The notes under the pieces were generated by a model. The model had not been told where the DNA came from. It did not search any database and was given only the letters and a program-made list of their open reading frames with translations. Shown here one piece after another: positions 313-27,745 of a DNA stretch of 64,000 nucleotides. The stretch comes from an uncultured bacterium (GTDB lineage Bacteria; Patescibacteriota; Minisyncoccia; Phycocordibacterales; GWA1-40-21). The position numbers and the translations under genes were made by a program. The stretch lies in the NCBI GenBank assembly GCA_963804975.1, contig CAWDSG010000002.1:208991-272990 (forward strand). The letters run 5' to 3'. The first letter of the stretch is position 1; each line of letters starts with the position of its first letter.

Positions 313-846
313 ATGAAAACTTTCAAAAACCTTGGTTATAGAACCCATAAACCAAAAATATACATCGGCACGGACCATGCAGGTTTTAATATGAAAGAAA
401 AGCTTGTTCCGTTCATAAAAAATCTTGGATATGAAGTTGTGGATTGCGGCGCTTACACGCTTGATCCGAAAGATGATGACCCTATTTACATTGCTCCGGT
501 TGCGAGAGCTGTCGCTTCAAATCCTGAACATATAAAAGGAATAATTCTTGGCGGTTCTGGGCAAGGCGAGGCGATTGTGGCAAATAGATTTCCGAATGTC
601 CGGGCGATAGTTTATTATGGCAAACCGGGAATGTTTTCAAAACTTGATGTCATACGGCTTGGCAGGGAGCACAACGACTCAAATGTTCTTTCGCTTGGCG
701 CAAGATTCTTGGGTTTGCGAAGCGCCAAAAAAGCGATAAAAAAATGGCTTGAAACGCCTTTTTCAAATGCAGCCAGACATATTAGAAGAAATAAAGAAAC
801 AGAAACAGTTTCCCGCGATGTGAGAAATAATATGGAATTCAAATAA
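313..846 (+). CDS. rpiB: ribose-5-phosphate isomerase B (RpiB/LacAB family)
   Basis: KIYIGTDHAGFNMKEKL N-terminus and GIILGGSGQGEAIVANR match RpiB hallmark regions. Confidence 0.85.
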   Translation: MKTFKNLGYRTHKPKIYIGTDHAGFNMKEKLVPFIKNLGYEVVDCGAYTLDPKDDDPIYIAPVARAVASNPEHIKGIILGGSGQGEAIVANRFPNVRAIVYYGKPGMFSKLDVIRLGREHNDSNVLSLGARFLGLRSAKKAIKKWLETPFSNAARHIRRNKETETVSRDVRNNMEFK

Positions 847-847
847 A

Positions 848-958
848 GGCTCGCTCGGCAATGCGATTTTGAGGTACGCATAATTTCCTGCTGGAAATTT
901 GCTCGATACTCGCGCCGCCGCGCTCCGTAGCCCTCAAAATCACATCGCCTCGCTCGCT
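848..958. repeat. hairpin-embedded intergenic repeat, copy A (downstream of rpiB)
   Basis: ~25-bp imperfect inverted arms around a 75-nt core (attttgaggtacgcataatttcctgctggaaatttgctcgatactcgcgccgccgcgctccgtagccctcaaaat). Confidence 0.8.
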
Positions 959-995
959 AACGAAAATGCAAAAATTATTGTGGTATAATTAATTT

Positions 996-1715
996 ATGGC
1001 AGAAGTCATCCCAGCAATAATTCCCGAGTCGTTTGAGGATTTGAGAGAAAAAATGTCTCTTGTGAATGAGCTTGTTCCTGTTGTGCAGGTGGATGTTTGC
1101 GATGGCAAATTTGTCCCGTCAAAGTCCTGGCCTTTTGTAAACGATAAGGGCGATTTTGAGCAGCTCATCAGAGAATCCGAGGGTTTTCCTTTTTGGGAGA
1201 CATTGGATTTTGAAGCGGATTTGATGGTGGCGAATCCTGAAGACGGCATGGCGGAAGATTGGATAAAAGCCGGTGCCAAAAGAATAATTCTGCACGAAGA
1301 ATCATCCGATAAAATCTTGAAATTCGTAAAAAAACTGAGAAAAGAATACGGATATTTCGGCGATTCGGCGATAACGATGGAAATAGGAATCGGAATAAAT
1401 GTTGATACTCCAGATGAAGTTCTTGACGTATATTTGAAAACGGACGAGCTCGGCAGGTCGCTTGCGGATTTTGTGCAATTTATGGGAATCGACAAGATTG
1501 GCTATCAGGGGCAAAGTTTTGATGAAAGAGATTTTGAAAAAATAAGAAATTTGAGGGAAAAATATCCTGAAGCGATTATTTCTGTGGATGGCGGGGTAAA
1601 TCTTGAAAATGCGCCAGATTTGGTAGAAGCCGGAGTAAATCGTCTTGTTTCCGGCTCGGCAATTTATGAAAGCGAGAATATTGAAGAGGCGATAGAGGAG
1701 ATGAAAAATATATAA
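996..1715 (+). CDS. rpe: ribulose-phosphate 3-epimerase-like TIM-barrel protein
   Basis: VQVDVCDGKFVP resembles the Rpe HxDVMDGxFVP metal-binding motif; TATAAT ends about 5 nt before the ATG. Confidence 0.6.
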   Translation: MAEVIPAIIPESFEDLREKMSLVNELVPVVQVDVCDGKFVPSKSWPFVNDKGDFEQLIRESEGFPFWETLDFEADLMVANPEDGMAEDWIKAGAKRIILHEESSDKILKFVKKLRKEYGYFGDSAITMEIGIGINVDTPDEVLDVYLKTDELGRSLADFVQFMGIDKIGYQGQSFDERDFEKIRNLREKYPEAIISVDGGVNLENAPDLVEAGVNRLVSGSAIYESENIEEAIEEMKNI

Positions 1716-1724
1716 AATAAAAAA

Positions 1725-2165
1725 ATGAAAATATACGTTTTGGGAAGCAATAGTTTCGTTAATAAAATGGTTAATTGCAGAGACGAACTTTGCCGTTTGG
1801 GTTATGACGGATGTATTCATCCGGATTATGAAGATCATGTTAAGGGTAAAAAGAGAGCTTTTATTGAAAATTCCTTGCCTGGCGAAAGCGCTGATTTCAA
1901 ACGCGAGCATGATTATATAAGAAGCCATTACAAACATATATTGGAAAGCGACGCTGTTATTATAGTGAATCTGGAAAAGAAAGGCACTAAAAATTATATA
2001 GGTGGAAATTGTTTAATGGAAATGGGAATGGCTTACGTGAATAATAAAAAAATATTTCTTTTGAACGATATACCGGCAGACAGCACATATTTGGATGAAA
2101 TAAAAGCTATGGACCCGATTTGCCTGTATGGAGATCTGAGAAATATAAGCAAATATAAAAATTAA
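1725..2165 (+). CDS. nucleoside 2-deoxyribosyltransferase-like protein
   Basis: 146 aa; flavodoxin-like pattern 'IYVLGS ... GGNCLMEMGMAY' resembles the Nuc_deoxyrib_tr / YtoQ family. Confidence 0.4.
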   Translation: MKIYVLGSNSFVNKMVNCRDELCRLGYDGCIHPDYEDHVKGKKRAFIENSLPGESADFKREHDYIRSHYKHILESDAVIIVNLEKKGTKNYIGGNCLMEMGMAYVNNKKIFLLNDIPADSTYLDEIKAMDPICLYGDLRNISKYKN

Positions 2166-2168
2166 AAA

Positions 2169-2636
2169 ATGGCAAAAATATGCGATCATACAAGCGTCGG
2201 AATGTTTGTCTGGAAAGGAGATAAATTATTATTGATTGAAAGAAAGAAATTTCCTCCGGGGTTTGCCGTTCCAGCAGGCCATGTCGATGAAGATAAAAAT
2301 TTTGAACAAGCGGCAAAGCGCGAATTAAAAGAAGAAGTCGGTCTTGATGCAACAGAGCTGAAATTAATTGCTGAAGGAAGAAAGGAAAATAAATGTCGGC
2401 GTGAGGGCGGCAGTTGGCATTATTGGAAACTTTACAAAAGCGAGACAATAGGCGATATAAAAGGAAATACGGATGAGACAAAACAGGCAGAATGGTATAC
2501 GAAAGAACAAATCAGGAAATTAGCCGAAAAAACCGAGAAATACAGCAAAAAAGAAATTTCTGAGGAAGAATGGACTGAAAATCCAGGGCTTGAACCGGTA
2601 ATGTATGAATGGTTTAAAAAATTAGGTATAATTTAA
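2169..2636 (+). CDS. NUDIX hydrolase
   Basis: Canonical Nudix box AGHVDEDKNFEQAAKRELKEEVGL (Gx5Ex7REUxEExGU). Confidence 0.85.
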   Translation: MAKICDHTSVGMFVWKGDKLLLIERKKFPPGFAVPAGHVDEDKNFEQAAKRELKEEVGLDATELKLIAEGRKENKCRREGGSWHYWKLYKSETIGDIKGNTDETKQAEWYTKEQIRKLAEKTEKYSKKEISEEEWTENPGLEPVMYEWFKKLGII

Positions 2637-2638
2637 AT

Positions 2639-3508
2639 ATGAAAACTCTAAGACAATACATAAAAGAAGCGCAAGATAAAGGGATGGCAGTCGGGCATTT
2701 TAATATTTCAAACCTGGAGATGCTTCACGGCATTTTCAATGCGGCGAAAAAACTGAATCTGCCGGTCATTATCGGCACAGCGGAAGGCGAAAGGGAATTT
2801 ATCGGTGCAAAACAAGCTGTGGCGCTCGTGAAGAGTTTGCGGGAAGAATACAACTATCCGATATACCTAAATGGCGACCATACGCATTCGTTTGAAAGTT
2901 TCAAAAAATGCGTAGATGCCGGATATGATTCAGTCATTATTGACGGTTCTGCTATGCCGTTTGAAGAAAATATAAAAATGACGAAGCAATGCGTGGAATA
3001 CGCCCGAAAAGTCAATCCTGAAATCATCGTGGAAGGCGAAATAGGCTTTATCGGCACGTCGTCAAAAGTATTGGATAAATTGCCGGAAGGAGTGAAAATC
3101 ACCGAAGAATTTTTGACCAAGCCGGAAGAAGCAAAAAGATTTATAAAAGAAACCGGCGTTGATATGCTTGCTCCTGCCGTCGGAAATATCCATGGAATGC
3201 TTGCAAACGGCAAAGAACCGGCGCTTAATATCAAAGTTGTGGGCAATTTGCGAAAAGCAATCGGACAGACCCCGATGGTGCTTCACGGCGCTTCCGGAAA
3301 TACGAAAAAAGATATCCAGGCAGCTATAAAAGCGGGAATGAATATTGTCCATATCTCGACTGAAATCCGCGTGGCTTTCAGGAAAACTCTTGAAGATGAA
3401 TTGAAATCAAAACCGGATGAAGTCGCGCCTTATAAATATATGGACAATGATATCGTCGCAGTGGAAAAGCTCGTGGAAGAAAAAATGAAAATTTTTAATT
3501 TTATGTAA
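2639..3508 (+). CDS. fba: class II fructose-bisphosphate aldolase
   Basis: N-terminus 'AVGHFNISNLEMLHGIFNAA', 'YLNGDHTHSFE' and 'VLHGASG' are class II FBA / tagatose-bisphosphate aldolase signatures. Confidence 0.85.
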   Translation: MKTLRQYIKEAQDKGMAVGHFNISNLEMLHGIFNAAKKLNLPVIIGTAEGEREFIGAKQAVALVKSLREEYNYPIYLNGDHTHSFESFKKCVDAGYDSVIIDGSAMPFEENIKMTKQCVEYARKVNPEIIVEGEIGFIGTSSKVLDKLPEGVKITEEFLTKPEEAKRFIKETGVDMLAPAVGNIHGMLANGKEPALNIKVVGNLRKAIGQTPMVLHGASGNTKKDIQAAIKAGMNIVHISTEIRVAFRKTLEDELKSKPDEVAPYKYMDNDIVAVEKLVEEKMKIFNFM

Positions 3509-24360: not shown

Positions 24361-24978
24361 ATGAACCCACTAAAAAATAGCGACGAAAAAAGTCACAATG
24401 TTTTTTTGTTTTTGCCTAAATGGTTTCCTGTTGTCGGCTGGTGTATATTAGCTGTTAAAGAAAAGAGCGAATTTGCACATAAAGCTCCGGGAGGAACAGG
24501 TTTTGATGAACCGCCGTTTGCTACGGCGAGAAGGAAAGGCATCGAAGAAGCAGGTATCTTAATAAAAAAAGCCACAGTATTTTTTAAAGAGGAAATAGAA
24601 GAACACATAAAATATTCTTATTTTATTGAGAGATATAAAATAAGGTCTTCCTTTGTGTATGGTACCGAAATATCGAATGGAAAAGGCATTACGGCTTTCT
24701 GGATGCCGATACGAGAATTTATCGGCAGTGGTTTTCTATGGACACAGAGAGATCCGGTCGATGAATTGATCATTGAGATTTTACCGACAGTAAAAGGTTT
24801 TACCGAAGATTGCGCGGATTTGATTGAAATGATCAAATTAAAACGTATCAGCAGAGAAATCCAACAAGAACCGGAATTGAAAGATAGTTTCAATGCTTTG
24901 TCTTTTCTAACATTTTCTTATCTGAAATGTTTTATCAAAAAGATTTTCAAAAAGTTATATATGGAAATAAGATATTGA
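24361..24978 (+). CDS. hypothetical protein with degenerate NUDIX-like box
   Basis: 'PGGTGFDEPPFATARRKGIEEAGI' fits Gx5Ex7R(K)UxEExGU with the RE-to-RK substitution; TTGACA-17-TATAAT promoter inside the rnhB 3' end. Confidence 0.3.
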   Translation: MNPLKNSDEKSHNVFLFLPKWFPVVGWCILAVKEKSEFAHKAPGGTGFDEPPFATARRKGIEEAGILIKKATVFFKEEIEEHIKYSYFIERYKIRSSFVYGTEISNGKGITAFWMPIREFIGSGFLWTQRDPVDELIIEILPTVKGFTEDCADLIEMIKLKRISREIQQEPELKDSFNALSFLTFSYLKCFIKKIFKKLYMEIRY

Positions 24979-25152: not shown

Positions 25153-25653
25153 ATGGATGAAAAAACCAAAAAAACCATTGTATTTGGTATATTACCAAAG
25201 CAATACGCGGACAAGTTGCAAGTGCCAACATGGATTGTTGGAGACGATCTTATGTTTCCACAAGCTTTGCTGAGTTACTATTTGTCCGAGGAACACGATT
25301 CGACCATGCCGAGCGAACTGAGAATCGTCTTTGAAAAACTTGGCTTTGAGATCTCTAAGATTAAAAACGATGTAGTGGTGGTTTATCGCGAAGAAACGGA
25401 AACCTTTGTGTTCATTGGTTACCTTATCAAAGCGGCTCAAGATAAAGAGATTATCGTCAATGGAGAAATGAAAACTGAAGACGGTCTAATCATCAATTAT
25501 TCGTTGCAACCGGTAGACGACCAACTAATGGATAAGTTACCGGAAAATCGTCGGAAGGCGCTTATCAATGCTTTGGAAGAAAGGCGAAAAGAAAACAACG
25601 CTTTTCAGATGCCGGTTTTCAAAAAAATGCGAATTGTAATGGACAAAAAATAA
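25153..25653 (+). CDS. hypothetical protein (possible YceD/DUF177 equivalent by position upstream of rpmF)
   Basis: 166 aa, own TTGACA/TAAAAT promoter and GGAGGG RBS; the assignment is synteny-based only, with no sequence support. Confidence 0.25.
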   Translation: MDEKTKKTIVFGILPKQYADKLQVPTWIVGDDLMFPQALLSYYLSEEHDSTMPSELRIVFEKLGFEISKIKNDVVVVYREETETFVFIGYLIKAAQDKEIIVNGEMKTEDGLIINYSLQPVDDQLMDKLPENRRKALINALEERRKENNAFQMPVFKKMRIVMDKK

Positions 25654-25665
25654 AATTTGCATTTT

Positions 25666-25700
25666 GGGGCCTTGTGTGAAAACACAAGGCCTTTTCTTTT
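25666..25700 (+). terminator. intrinsic terminator upstream of rpmF
   Basis: ggggccttgtgt-gaaaa-cacaaggcc + TTTTCTTTTTT. Confidence 0.8.
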
Positions 25701-25729
25701 TTAAAAAAATAAGCTATACTCTCGGGACT

Positions 25730-25951
25730 ATGGTAAATCGAATGAGGCACAATAGGTCGCAGAGGGGAAGCACGAGATCGCATCATGCGCTTTCGGGAGT
25801 TTCCATTACAAAATGTCCGGATTGCGGGATGCCGGTATCAAGGCACAGAGCTTGCTCAAACTGCGGAAAATACAGAGGAAAAGTAGTTGTAGATTTAGAA
25901 GCAAAAGCAGCAAAGGCAAAAAAGAAAACGGAAAAAAGCAAGAAAAAATAA
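25730..25951 (+). CDS. rpmF: 50S ribosomal protein L32
   Basis: 'RSHHALS...CPDCG...HRACSNCGKYRGK' is the L32 zinc-ribbon; the track ORF (25664) is trimmed to the first ATG after the upstream terminator. Confidence 0.8.
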   Translation: MVNRMRHNRSQRGSTRSHHALSGVSITKCPDCGMPVSRHRACSNCGKYRGKVVVDLEAKAAKAKKKTEKSKKK

Positions 25952-25956
25952 GATTA

Positions 25957-26046
25957 AAAAGGGCGGCATAATAAAAATTTTCTTCTCGGAAAACTCGCTT
26001 CGCTCAGACAGTTCCTCGCAGAAAATTTTTATTATGCCGCCCTTTT
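25957..26046. repeat. hairpin-embedded intergenic element, copy E (downstream of rpmF), a divergent family member
   Basis: Perfect 25-bp arms aaaagggcggcataataaaaatttt/...; GC-rich core cttctcggaaaactcgcttcgctcagacagttcctcgcag. Confidence 0.5.
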
Positions 26047-26113: not shown

Positions 26114-27016
26114 ATGTCTAGCAGGCACCTTGCAAGGGGAATAGTTCTACAGACCGCTTTTGAGTGGGATTTTCGAAATCTTAATAGGGACGAAGCTTTG
26201 GAATCCTTAGCCAGAAATATCAAGGAATTCGGCGACGGCGATTCGGAAGAATCTTTTTCGGAAAATCTTCTGAAGGGCGTCATTGATAAGAAAACGGATC
26301 TTGACACTATCATCGTGAAAGCGGCTCCGGACTGGCCGATTGAAAAAATTTCTATTGCGGATAGGAATATTTTGCGCATCGGCCTGTATGAATTACTGTT
26401 TAGTGACAGGAAAGAAGTGCCGGCAAAAGTCGCGATAAACGAAGCCATAGAGCTTGCAAAAGTTTATGGCGGAGAAAAAAGCGGCGGTTTTATTAACGGA
26501 GTTCTCGGTACGATATATAAAGAGCTTGGCGAGCCGGGCAAAGAGGAAACATCGAAAAAGAACAATAGGAATGTTCCATTTGAAAAAATGCCCATCAAAC
26601 GCCTTGCCGGAGCGGTAGTGTACTGTATCAAAGACGATACGATATATTTCGCTTTTGTCCATGATGTTTTTGGACGTTGGACTCTTTCCAAAGATAAAAT
26701 AAAAGAAAATGAAGAATTAAAGGACGGAGCAATAAGAGGGGTAAAAGAAGAAATGGGGATAGACGTTGTAGTTGAAAATGAACTTTCACAAAACGAATAT
26801 GTCGCGAACCATCCGGAAGAGGGCAAGATCAGAAAACAAGTCACTTATTTTCTCGCAAGCGCCGAAATGAAAGATCTGAAACTTGGTGATTCCGGCGGGC
26901 TTGATGACGCGAAATGGTTCAAATTGCAGGATATTCAGAGTCTCAATTTTTATAACGATATTTTGCCTATTATCACAAAGGCAATCACCATAATTTCAGG
27001 CAGGAAGCCAAAATAA
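26114..27016 (+). CDS. nusB: transcription antitermination factor NusB fused to a C-terminal NUDIX hydrolase domain
   Basis: N-terminal NusB helices (ARGIVLQTAFEWDF..., 'ILRIGLYELLF'); the C-terminal half carries the Nudix box 'GAIRGVKEEMGI'. Confidence 0.7.
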   Translation: MSSRHLARGIVLQTAFEWDFRNLNRDEALESLARNIKEFGDGDSEESFSENLLKGVIDKKTDLDTIIVKAAPDWPIEKISIADRNILRIGLYELLFSDRKEVPAKVAINEAIELAKVYGGEKSGGFINGVLGTIYKELGEPGKEETSKKNNRNVPFEKMPIKRLAGAVVYCIKDDTIYFAFVHDVFGRWTLSKDKIKENEELKDGAIRGVKEEMGIDVVVENELSQNEYVANHPEEGKIRKQVTYFLASAEMKDLKLGDSGGLDDAKWFKLQDIQSLNFYNDILPIITKAITIISGRKPK

Positions 27017-27040: not shown

Positions 27041-27745
27041 ATGACACAGCCGGATTTCTCAAAATTTGAAAAGACCATAGGAATAAACTTCAAAAACAAA
27101 GATCTTTTGAAGCAGGCATTTACCCATAGATCTTATCTGAATGAGCACAGGGATATTGAGCTTGAACACAACGAAAGATTGGAATTTTTGGGCGATGCCG
27201 TGCTTGAGCTTATCATCACCGAATATCTTTATAATAAATATCCTGACAGCAATGAGGGTGATCTGACTTCATACAGGTCTGCTCTGGTTAATGCAATCAC
27301 CTTATCAGATGCGGCAAGCAAAATAGGCATGAATGATTATCTTTTGCTTTCAAAAGGCGAGGCAAAAGATATGGGCAAAGCCAGGCAGATTATTTTGGCC
27401 AACACCATTGAGGCTCTGATAGGCGCAATATTTCTTGATCAGGGATATGATACGGCGAAATATTTCATTTCAAACAATATTTTTAATCTCATAGAAAAAA
27501 TCATCGCGGAAAAAACATGGCTTGATGCAAAAAGCAAATTTCAAGAGCAGGCGCAGGAACACGAAAGCATCACTCCACTTTATAAAACGCTTAAAGAGGA
27601 AGGGCCGGACCATGACAAAAAGTTTACGGTTGGCGTATATTTGGAAAAGCATAAAGTGGCGGAAGGTGAAGGAAAATCAAAACAAGAGGCCGAGCAAGTT
27701 GCCGCAAGCAATGCGTTAAAAGTCAAAGGATGGCTTGAAGATTAA
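27041..27745 (+). CDS. rnc: ribonuclease III
   Basis: 'ERLEFLGDAVLELIITEYLY' RNase III signature plus C-terminal dsRBD. Confidence 0.9.
   Translation: MTQPDFSKFEKTIGINFKNKDLLKQAFTHRSYLNEHRDIELEHNERLEFLGDAVLELIITEYLYNKYPDSNEGDLTSYRSALVNAITLSDAASKIGMNDYLLLSKGEAKDMGKARQIILANTIEALIGAIFLDQGYDTAKYFISNNIFNLIEKIIAEKTWLDAKSKFQEQAQEHESITPLYKTLKEEGPDHDKKFTVGVYLEKHKVAEGEGKSKQEAEQVAASNALKVKGWLED

Follow-up and report, generated by a model that had tools for sequence, protein, structure and literature searches.

A gene joining NusB to a Nudix-fold domain

NusB is the BoxA-binding antitermination factor of ribosomal RNA (rRNA) transcription and ranks among the most conserved and simplest transcription factors. 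Here we analysed a 64,000-nucleotide stretch of DNA (hereafter the window) from an uncultured bacterium of the Patescibacteriota (Minisyncoccia; assembly GCA_963804975.1, contig CAWDSG010000002.1, positions 208,991 to 272,990), in which one gene on the forward strand, nusB::nudix (26114..27016), encodes a NusB followed by a Nudix-fold domain. The gene is complete (300 amino acids plus stop), as judged from the translation of its open reading frame (ORF), from Pfam matches to both NusB and NUDIX and from full-length orthologues, and its 300 codons run without an internal stop. A first-pass annotation, made from the sequence of the window, had described a NusB N-terminal domain and then a Nudix fold in this single ORF, and Pfam, the NCBIfam NusB equivalog model TIGR01951 and an AlphaFold2 (AF2) model all agree with it. 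Pfam places NusB (PF01029) at residues 7-136 (E 3e-32) and NUDIX (PF00293) at residues 187-282 (E 2.6e-9; 37.6 bits, gathering score 21.1). The AF2 model, for which 36 diverse homologues served as input, has a mean predicted local distance difference test score (pLDDT) of 91.6 and contains both folds, with seven helices across residues 2-138 of the NusB half (pLDDT mostly >90) and a high-confidence Nudix alpha/beta/alpha domain at residues 161-297. Because the predicted template modelling score (pTM) of the whole model is 0.65, we read it as two well-defined domains joined by a flexible tether. A Foldseek search with the whole two-domain model gave 555 matches at E ≤ 0.001, of which the top ones were almost all Nudix enzymes, with the NusB structure 1eyv also present; no Protein Data Bank (PDB) chain found in this search spans both NusB and Nudix.

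The NusB domain (amino acids 1-143, 26114..26542) consists of the seven predicted helices and ends in Y135-K-E-x-G-E-P-G-K143. It is followed on the same strand by a variable, predicted-disordered linker (amino acids 144-160, 26543..26593; delimited by AF2 pLDDT and homologue comparison) and by a Nudix-fold domain that is structurally of the NUDT2/diadenosine tetraphosphate (Ap4A) hydrolase type (amino acids 161-297, 26594..27004; from Pfam PF00293, PDB sequence matches and Foldseek). Within the latter, a degenerate Nudix box (amino acids 194-216, 26693..26761) sits on the predicted Nudix helix (202-214 in the AF2 model). The pLDDT falls below 50 at residues 142-151, and both the length and the sequence of the linker differ between homologues; its nonsynonymous divergence (dN) was the highest of the three segments in comparisons with the window protein, but not in those between the related loci L001 and L004 or L002 and L003. 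The G-E-P-G-K motif ahead of the linker (amino acids 139-143, 26528-26542), itself preceded by Y-K-E, does not vary among the 81 closer homologues and prevails among distant ones. It forms the end of NusB helix alpha7, AF2 puts it at the edge of the disordered linker, and it might serve for docking or as a hinge.

The fusion and its gene order are conserved across Paceibacteria

A protein search retrieved 120 clusters with 72-90% identity to the fusion, ~298-305 amino acids long and all carrying PF01029 and PF00293; those with names were labelled just 'transcription antitermination factor NusB' and came from Candidatus Paceibacterota or Minisyncoccia. When we scanned one genome per Genome Taxonomy Database (GTDB) species, at least 183 species-level genomes were found to encode a relative. 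The best 80 of the 183 loci, which were kept for locus comparison, are essentially all full length (57-88% identity) and derive from Taylor-, Yonath-, Nomura- and Zambryskibacteria, Parcubacteria and Paceibacterota metagenome-assembled genomes produced by many independent studies. A HMMER scan with the Nudix half alone yielded 664 clusters (50% identity) at E < 1e-3; among the best 150 of these, 60 also contained NusB and ~45 were full length (287-358 amino acids), with Nudix identity down to ~26-31%.

The surrounding genes are conserved as well. The order rnhB … rpmF – nusB::nudix – rnc … smc is found in ~75 of the 80 loci, and the same rnhB/rpmF–fusion–rnc–smc order recurs in a 0.68-Mb closed relative (OY970290.1) and in the most divergent members examined (31-36% identity). 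In the window, rnc (27041..27745, forward strand; Pfam Ribonuclease_3 and dsrm), which encodes RNase III, starts 25 nt downstream of the fusion and is probably co-transcribed with it; rnc adjoins the fusion in 75/80 loci and also in distant members. An RNase R gene lies further along in the neighbourhood.

The fusion is thus real, ancient and clade-wide in Paceibacteria/Patescibacteria, and confined to them as far as sampled. A comparison of NusB architectures in related genomes, which the first-pass annotation had put forward as a check, speaks clearly for a genuine fusion and against a frameshift or assembly artefact. The Paceibacteria are a very large, uncultured and genome-reduced lineage that lacks much of the usual regulatory machinery.

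One apparent natural split into nusB and nudix (P0144, at L084:542-1459; GCA_013565675.1, JACCDV010735530.1) was rejected. A nusB of 133 amino acids is followed there by a nudix of 141 amino acids with the rpmF–nusB–nudix–rnc order intact, and what separates them is one TAA, in frame, in place of the conserved Tyr135 codon (…GVLGAV*KELGEPRK…). This is no true split; the stop could stem from a sequencing error, belong to a pseudogene or be read through. Other 'stand-alone' or partial matches to the Nudix half were mostly fragments or distant canonical enzymes.

The N-terminal half is an orthodox NusB

The fusion protein scores 121.7 bits against TIGR01951, well above the cut-off of 88.35, and the RsmB NCBIfam models match its N-terminal half far below their cut-offs. 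Structurally, the NusB half matches 1eyv with a target TM-score (TMt) of 0.84 in Foldseek, and it aligns end to end with the solved NusB structures of Thermotoga maritima, Aquifex aeolicus, Mycobacterium tuberculosis and Escherichia coli. In the A. aeolicus NusB–NusE–BoxA structure, F122, K118 and E81, located on helix alpha7 and in the alpha4-5 region, contact BoxA RNA, with F122 stacking on U8 (PMC3177189); alignment to 2jr0/3r2c equates these residues with F126, K122 and D83 of the fusion, and the fusion family shows little or no variation at F126 and D83. By these alignments, the N-terminal half is an orthodox NusB with its BoxA-contact residues kept. Since helix alpha7, which carries F126, continues straight into the Y-K-E-x-G-E-P-G-K motif and then the linker, the Nudix domain is predicted to hang from the BoxA/NusE side of NusB. 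No second NusB-like ORF is present in the 64-kb window, and an Rfam scan of the window found three tRNAs only, with no rRNA leader, BoxA or rRNA operon.

The C-terminal half belongs to the Ap4A hydrolase group and has a degenerate Nudix box

The best PDB sequence matches of the Nudix half were Chlamydia trachomatis CT771, listed as an asymmetric Ap4A hydrolase among the references of PMC5526541, and Thermus thermophilus Ndx1. Foldseek ranked the A. aeolicus Ap4A hydrolase 3i7u (aq_158) first (TMt 0.88-0.90), followed by the Nudix domain of MutT1/Rv2985 (a mycobacterial diadenosine polyphosphatase), CT771, Ndx1 and the Ap4A hydrolases of Caenorhabditis elegans (1ktg) and human (3u53), with Dcp2, NudC and the non-catalytic NrtR domain at lower ranks. 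The modelled fold thereby places the Nudix half in the NUDT2/Ap4A-hydrolase structural clade. Matches to RNA 5'-end pyrophosphohydrolases of the RppH kind are far weaker: the RppH equivalog NF001936 reaches 12.5 bits where 118 are required, the 50 best structural neighbours do not include RppH, and NudC is present only weakly.

The box of the window protein reads D-KIKEN-E-ELKDGAI-R-G-V-K-E-E-M-G-I. Set against the consensus GX5EX7REUXEEXGU this is D194-x5-E200-x7-R208-G209-V-K-E212-E213-M-G215-I, in which the first Gly is replaced by D194 and the Glu of 'RE' by G209, and E200, R208, E212, E213 and G215 are retained. In terms of the C. elegans Ap4A hydrolase, the counterpart of E52 is G209 and the counterparts of E55 and E56 are present. 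The nearest relatives, all reading 'DERGEK' (13 of the 234 full-length fusions tallied), carry E213K as well, at the E56 counterpart. These changes appear to be derived, because slightly more distant relatives (72-83% identity) mostly have a canonical box. Taking G194D and E209G together, with E213K in addition in the sister genomes, hydrolysis in the window's lineage is probably strongly impaired.

Erosion of the box is widespread in the family. It is complete in 100 of the 234 full-length fusions, and in a de-replicated set of 44 family representatives, whose Nudix domains share <60% identity, eight have all four acidic residues of the box and the other 36 lack at least one. Position 209 is Glu in nine representatives and otherwise V (12), K (10), I (6), A (5), G (1) or T (1). 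E212 is kept in 25/44, E200 in 33 plus three with Asp (36/44) and E213 in 40/44 (91%), and some lineages have no recognisable box at all (e.g., 'KRVIKDKLAA' and 'FKIMKEKFEI'). In a rough neighbour-joining tree without support values, canonical forms stand beside stand-alone canonical relatives and in a few clades, degenerate ones are scattered and the basal fusions are canonical, a pattern that fits an active ancestor with repeated loss of the box. The first-pass annotation had called the box canonical, which D194 and G209 contradict. The alternative it had named, that the domain lacks the catalytic glutamates on alignment, turns out to be true in part: G209, the EE-to-EK change in the closest relatives and the 36 incomplete representatives fit it.

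Nudix domains related to that of the fusion were also seen in other settings. One of the closest stand-alone relatives with a canonical box (P0157, L083:5001-5453) lies among integrase, DNA methylase and Phage_rep_O-like genes, that is, in a phage or mobile-element context. A 1074-amino-acid RNase E/G (P0248, L085:5001-8225; S1, RNase_E_G and thioredoxin-like) ends in two tandem Nudix domains that belong to the same subfamily, both with degenerate boxes (…HAIKNDLGL… and …RTVKGELGL…), and would be a second RNA-processing protein with such a pseudo-Nudix module. Degenerate members of this subfamily are joined to further nucleic-acid proteins as well. Further putative architectures, taken from gene calls (P0239, P0193 and P0212), comprise a 1219-amino-acid protein with a weak HEPN match, a STAND NTPase (NB-ARC), TPR repeats, NusB and NUDIX, a 577-amino-acid protein with an N-terminal extension (weak CSD match), NusB and NUDIX, and a 379-amino-acid protein with Sigma70_r4, a DnaA-C HTH and NUDIX.

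Candidate nucleotide-binding residues are kept and the Nudix domain is under purifying selection

To relate the domain to characterized enzymes, the C. elegans (1KT9/1KTG) and human NUDT2 sequences were aligned to the family hidden Markov model with hmmalign. K193 of the fusion corresponds to C. elegans K36 and human K42, K241 to C. elegans K83 and human K89, and Y280 to C. elegans Y121 and human F128. Y229 corresponds to human Y82 and, inferred by eye where hmmalign is ambiguous, to C. elegans Y76; D282 is paired with human E130, with no C. elegans entry. In human NUDT2, K42 and Y82 contact a sulphate that occupies the P1 phosphate site, the adenine is stacked by the aromatic side chains of Y82 and F128, and its amino group is in contact with E130; human K89 does not engage the P1 sulphate, whereas its Plasmodium falciparum counterpart Lys94 does (PMC4734340). 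Across the 44 representatives, K193 is kept in 43, Y or F at 229 in 42, K or R at 241 in 40, Y280 in 43 and D282 in 36, and the same figures hold in the canonical and degenerate subsets. These five residues thus make up a putative phosphate-binding and adenine-stacking site that is kept nearly everywhere.

Within the degenerate-box clade (the window, L001 and L004), the ratio of nonsynonymous to synonymous divergence (dN/dS) of the Nudix domain is 0.064-0.068 at unsaturated dS. Because this equals the value for the NusB domain (0.066) and amino-acid identity within the clade is 83-89%, the Nudix domain is maintained by selection and is not decaying.

A proposed nucleotide- or 5'-end-binding module on NusB

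Our preferred reading, to which we give an even chance, is that the NusB of this organism carries a conserved Nudix module that binds a nucleotide or an RNA 5' end, and for which hydrolysis is dispensable and has been lost repeatedly. Binding rather than turnover is favoured because eroded catalytic glutamates are combined with an intact candidate nucleotide pocket and strong purifying selection. In such a scheme, a C-terminal Nudix domain derived from an enzyme of the NUDT2/Ap4A-hydrolase type would be attached through a flexible linker of ~20 residues right after helix alpha7, which would hold the 3' part of BoxA next to NusE/S10. Selection would have acted constantly on the phosphate-binding lysines and adenine-stacking tyrosines and not on the catalytic Nudix-box glutamates, and in its conserved role the domain would most likely bind an adenine-nucleotide polyphosphate within the antitermination complex. 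A free dinucleoside polyphosphate (Ap4A) or an ATP-like molecule might be the ligand, or else the 5' end of the nascent pre-rRNA in its (poly)phosphorylated or capped form. Turnover would be an additional activity that some lineages have retained and others have lost on repeated occasions.

There is precedent for such a separation of binding from turnover. In the NUDT9 group, enzymes with a RILGEE or REFGKK box are inactive (PMC6461439, PMC4974056), and in the sea-anemone NUDT9-H domain an E-to-I/F-to-L mutant (RE-to-RI) retains its KM with ~1% of kcat, EE-to-KK lowering kcat to ~0.1% (PMC6461439). Human TRPM2, whose box is RILRQE, binds ADP-ribose without hydrolysing it, and its invertebrate orthologues are still enzymes (PMC6461439, PMC4974056). 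More generally, Nudix domains without catalysis are as a rule found within multidomain proteins, where they bind small molecules or other domains (PMC5389931).

In E. coli, stable assembly of the NusB-containing rRNA transcription antitermination complex (rrnTAC) brings the two ends of the rRNA, 5' and 3', together and makes RNase III cleave more strongly during transcription, with SuhB as the final stabiliser (bioRxiv 10.64898/2026.03.17.712431; PMC10250234). The position of rnc 25 nt downstream provides a suggestive context for the fusion. As a more speculative possibility, the Nudix-bearing NusB may be a ligand-gated or 5'-end-tethering antitermination factor, which could couple rRNA antitermination and RNase III processing of leader and trailer to nucleotide status. 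It would do so either by binding a dinucleoside polyphosphate or ATP-type signal or by clamping the (poly)phosphorylated or capped pre-rRNA 5' end near BoxA, and catalysis would be a dispensable 'reset', as between invertebrate and vertebrate TRPM2.

Several observations weigh against a binding module that can dispense with hydrolysis. The good conservation of E213 and of E200 (as E or D) suggests that metal binding still matters and that residual or alternative-base catalysis is possible, given that Nudix enzymes differ in their catalytic base (PMC4974056). Lineages in which the box has stayed canonical despite saturated synonymous divergence probably still need hydrolysis. The binding-site equivalences come from sequence alignment to NUDT2-type enzymes, and the conservation of some of the 'binding' residues could be explained by fold stability. 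Finally, the absence of a second, plain nusB was checked within the 64-kb window only.

The first-pass annotation had suggested that the fusion would place a pyrophosphohydrolase at the antitermination complex. Its location holds up, the Nudix domain being predicted to be tethered after alpha7, the BoxA-contacting helix; an active enzyme is the doubtful part, given G209, the EK relatives and the 36 incomplete representatives. In its strongest form, this alternative would be an active RNA 5'-end pyrophosphohydrolase or decapping enzyme at BoxA, which converts triphosphorylated, Np4- or NAD-capped pre-rRNA ends to monophosphate and feeds downstream processing. We regard it as unlikely. The box residues that survive in the window protein (E200, R208, E212, E213 and G215), the near-universal E213, the subset of the family with perfect boxes and the variability of the catalytic base (PMC4974056) speak for it, as do a structural clade that includes Dcp2 as well as NUDT2, the latter of which trims triphosphorylated RNA (PMC8616924), the RNA-processing neighbours (rnc and, further on, RNase R) and the fusion of Nudix domains of the same subfamily to RNase E/G in P0248. 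The P0248 domains are degenerate too, however, and the Glu of 'RE' is missing from the window protein and from 35/44 representatives, with E213K in the 13 closest relatives; in enzymes of the NUDT9 type, equivalent changes lower kcat by a factor of 100 to 1000 or leave no activity (PMC6461439). The RppH NCBIfam score (12.5 against 118 bits) points the same way.

A ligand-independent structural or protein-interaction module, serving as a docking surface (e.g., as a SuhB-like stabiliser, or in contact with RNase III, S10 or RNA polymerase), would account for the dispensability of the catalytic residues across the family, for the strong purifying selection on the domain and for the invariant YKExGEPGK motif at the domain boundary. 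Some Nudix domains without enzymatic activity are known to act in protein interactions (PMC5389931), and the E. coli rrnTAC needs SuhB for stable assembly and boosts RNase III processing (bioRxiv 10.64898/2026.03.17.712431). We nevertheless consider a pure docking role quite unlikely: the best-kept residues are the counterparts of the phosphate and adenine ligands of Ap4A hydrolases and of the metal-site residues E213 and E200, which a pure docking surface could do without, and with its pTM of 0.65 and its disordered linker the model does not point to a fixed interface within the molecule.

It is very unlikely, in our view, that the two halves are functionally uncoupled, with a housekeeping Ap4A or nucleoside triphosphate hydrolase merely co-translated with NusB in a streamlined genome and without an antitermination role. 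Candidate Phyla Radiation genomes are highly compact (0.6-0.7 Mb contigs) and stand-alone canonical-box relatives exist, but a housekeeping hydrolase would keep its catalytic box, which most members do not, and the fusion is stable over very deep divergence with no true split, the L084 case being an in-frame TAA. A frameshift or an assembly chimera of two genes has a negligible probability and was ruled out, as the L084 stop is all that could be cited for it against a continuous ORF and hundreds of independent assemblies with the same full-length architecture and a homologous linker.

Comparison with known NusB and Nudix proteins

With the NusB proteins of E. coli, A. aeolicus, T. maritima and M. 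tuberculosis the fusion shares the same all-helical fold, an above-cut-off equivalog score and the counterparts F126, K122 and D83. Known NusB proteins are single-domain and ~130-150 amino acids long, whereas the fusion continues through GEPGK and the linker into a Nudix domain of 140 amino acids. To our knowledge, no multidomain NusB with an accessory nucleotide-binding domain has been characterised. Full-text literature searches on NusB with Nudix and on NusB with Patescibacteria returned nothing relevant among the papers listed, and NusB goes unmentioned in a review of the Nudix clan (PMC5389931). The simplest description from sequence comparison is therefore that of an orthodox NusB to which a NUDT2-type Nudix domain, apparently pseudo-enzymatic for the most part, has been added.

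By sequence alignment, the W-T-x-x-K-G motif of the NUDT2-type (asymmetrical) diadenosine polyphosphate (ApnA) hydrolases is conserved in the fused domain, and so are their phosphate-binding Lys residues and both aromatics that stack on adenine. The two differ in that the box of the fused domain is degenerate, with the E52 counterpart gone and the E56 counterpart lost in sister genomes, and in that the fused domain, unlike ApnA hydrolases, is never free-standing in this genomic context. RppH and NudC share the Nudix fold, but their boxes are intact and the RppH models fall far below cut-off on the fusion. Close parallels in kind are the NUDT9-H domain of vertebrate TRPM2 and NrtR, which likewise are Nudix domains in multidomain regulators that have lost box glutamates (RILRQE in TRPM2, R-[GKVIA]-x-K-[EDK]-E in the fusion). 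In TRPM2 ligand binding is retained and invertebrate lineages keep catalysis; in the fusion it is ligand binding that we infer. Moreover, the Nudix domain of the fusion is NUDT2-like and not an NUDT9/ADP-ribose pyrophosphatase, and its partner is NusB in place of a channel or a winged helix-turn-helix domain.

The 16S rRNA methyltransferase RsmB/Sun also has an RNA-binding module of the NusB fold upstream of an enzyme-fold domain, which in RsmB acts on rRNA. It differs from the fusion in both halves, the N-terminal one being a true NusB equivalog here and not an RsmB N-domain, and the C-terminal one a Nudix domain and not an S-adenosylmethionine-dependent methyltransferase. SuhB in the E. coli rrnTAC is an enzyme fold (inositol monophosphatase) that has become an architectural component of a NusB-containing complex and promotes RNase III processing; it is a separate protein of unrelated fold, however, and its analogy with the fused Nudix domain is speculative.

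The fusion itself is solid, and the pattern of erosion yields a concrete, testable hypothesis. If the pocket has indeed been kept and catalysis shed clade-wide, the Paceibacteria would have an unrecognised input into rRNA transcription and processing, and the small set of Nudix pseudo-enzymes that serve as sensors would gain a bacterial addition. The architecture is abundant in public data, where 'transcription antitermination factor NusB' labels hide the Nudix domain, and the domain should not be annotated by default as an active hydrolase.

Other Nudix-type genes and features of the window

The first-pass annotation had pointed out two further Nudix-type genes near the fusion, making three within 25 kb. 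As it had noted, a stand-alone Nudix gene (Nudix155) lies at 2169-2636; its product matches Pfam NUDIX at E 1.3e-21 and has an intact REx2EE. It is embedded in a sugar-phosphate block (313-3508) of rpiB (313-846), rpe (996-1715), a 146-amino-acid ORF without assigned family (1725-2165), the nudix gene itself and the class-II fructose-bisphosphate aldolase gene fba (2639-3508), with gaps of 3-4 nt between the nudix gene and its neighbours. Because of this embedding, the context suggests a metabolite substrate (of a sugar-nucleotide or ADP-ribose type) and not an RNA role.

The other gene, ORF205 (24361-24978, 205 amino acids), had been described as encoding a protein with a degenerate Nudix-like box. 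Alone it matches Pfam NUDIX below threshold (E 0.045), but all three members of its family match (best E 8.4e-7), and its motif GGTGFDEPPFATARRKGIEEAGI fits the box except that the Glu of 'RE' is replaced by K and the U residue after it by Gly, so that a divergent Nudix-like protein is plausible. A search of 5.8 billion proteins returned only the identical protein, and ORF205 is otherwise an orphan. Together with a 166-amino-acid ORF without a family match (25153-25653), it occupies the slot between rnhB and rpmF; both are lineage-restricted, and the content of the slot is variable in relatives.

A functional cluster or paralogous origin of the three Nudix genes was rejected. Nudix155 is 24% identical to the fused Nudix domain and ORF205 has no detectable similarity to it, and in the relatives ORF205 homologues occur in 2/80 loci and Nudix155 occurs near the fusion in 0/80. 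With no detectable paralogy and no synteny, a link between the three is not supported, and the presence of three Nudix-type genes within 25 kb is a coincidence of location and not a system.

Upstream of the fusion on the forward strand lies rpmF (25730..25951), encoding ribosomal protein L32 (translation MVNRMRHNRSQRGSTRSHHALS… within ORF 25664-25951), homologues of which are found upstream in 75/80 loci, with Pfam Ribosomal_L32p matched in relatives. Between rpmF and nusB::nudix, also on the forward strand, is a hairpin (25957..26046) with 35-nt arms that are 91% complementary and form ~27 contiguous base pairs, followed by the U-tract CUUUUCUUUUU; its predicted RNA fold has an energy of -43.4 kcal/mol (z -8.2). 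Stable hairpins occur at the same rpmF–nusB position in many relatives. The hairpin probably terminates rpmF or is a site of processing, marking where the nusB::nudix-rnc unit begins, and it is long enough to be an RNase III substrate. Its position just upstream of nusB::nudix-rnc recalls the autoregulation of E. coli rnc through its leader.

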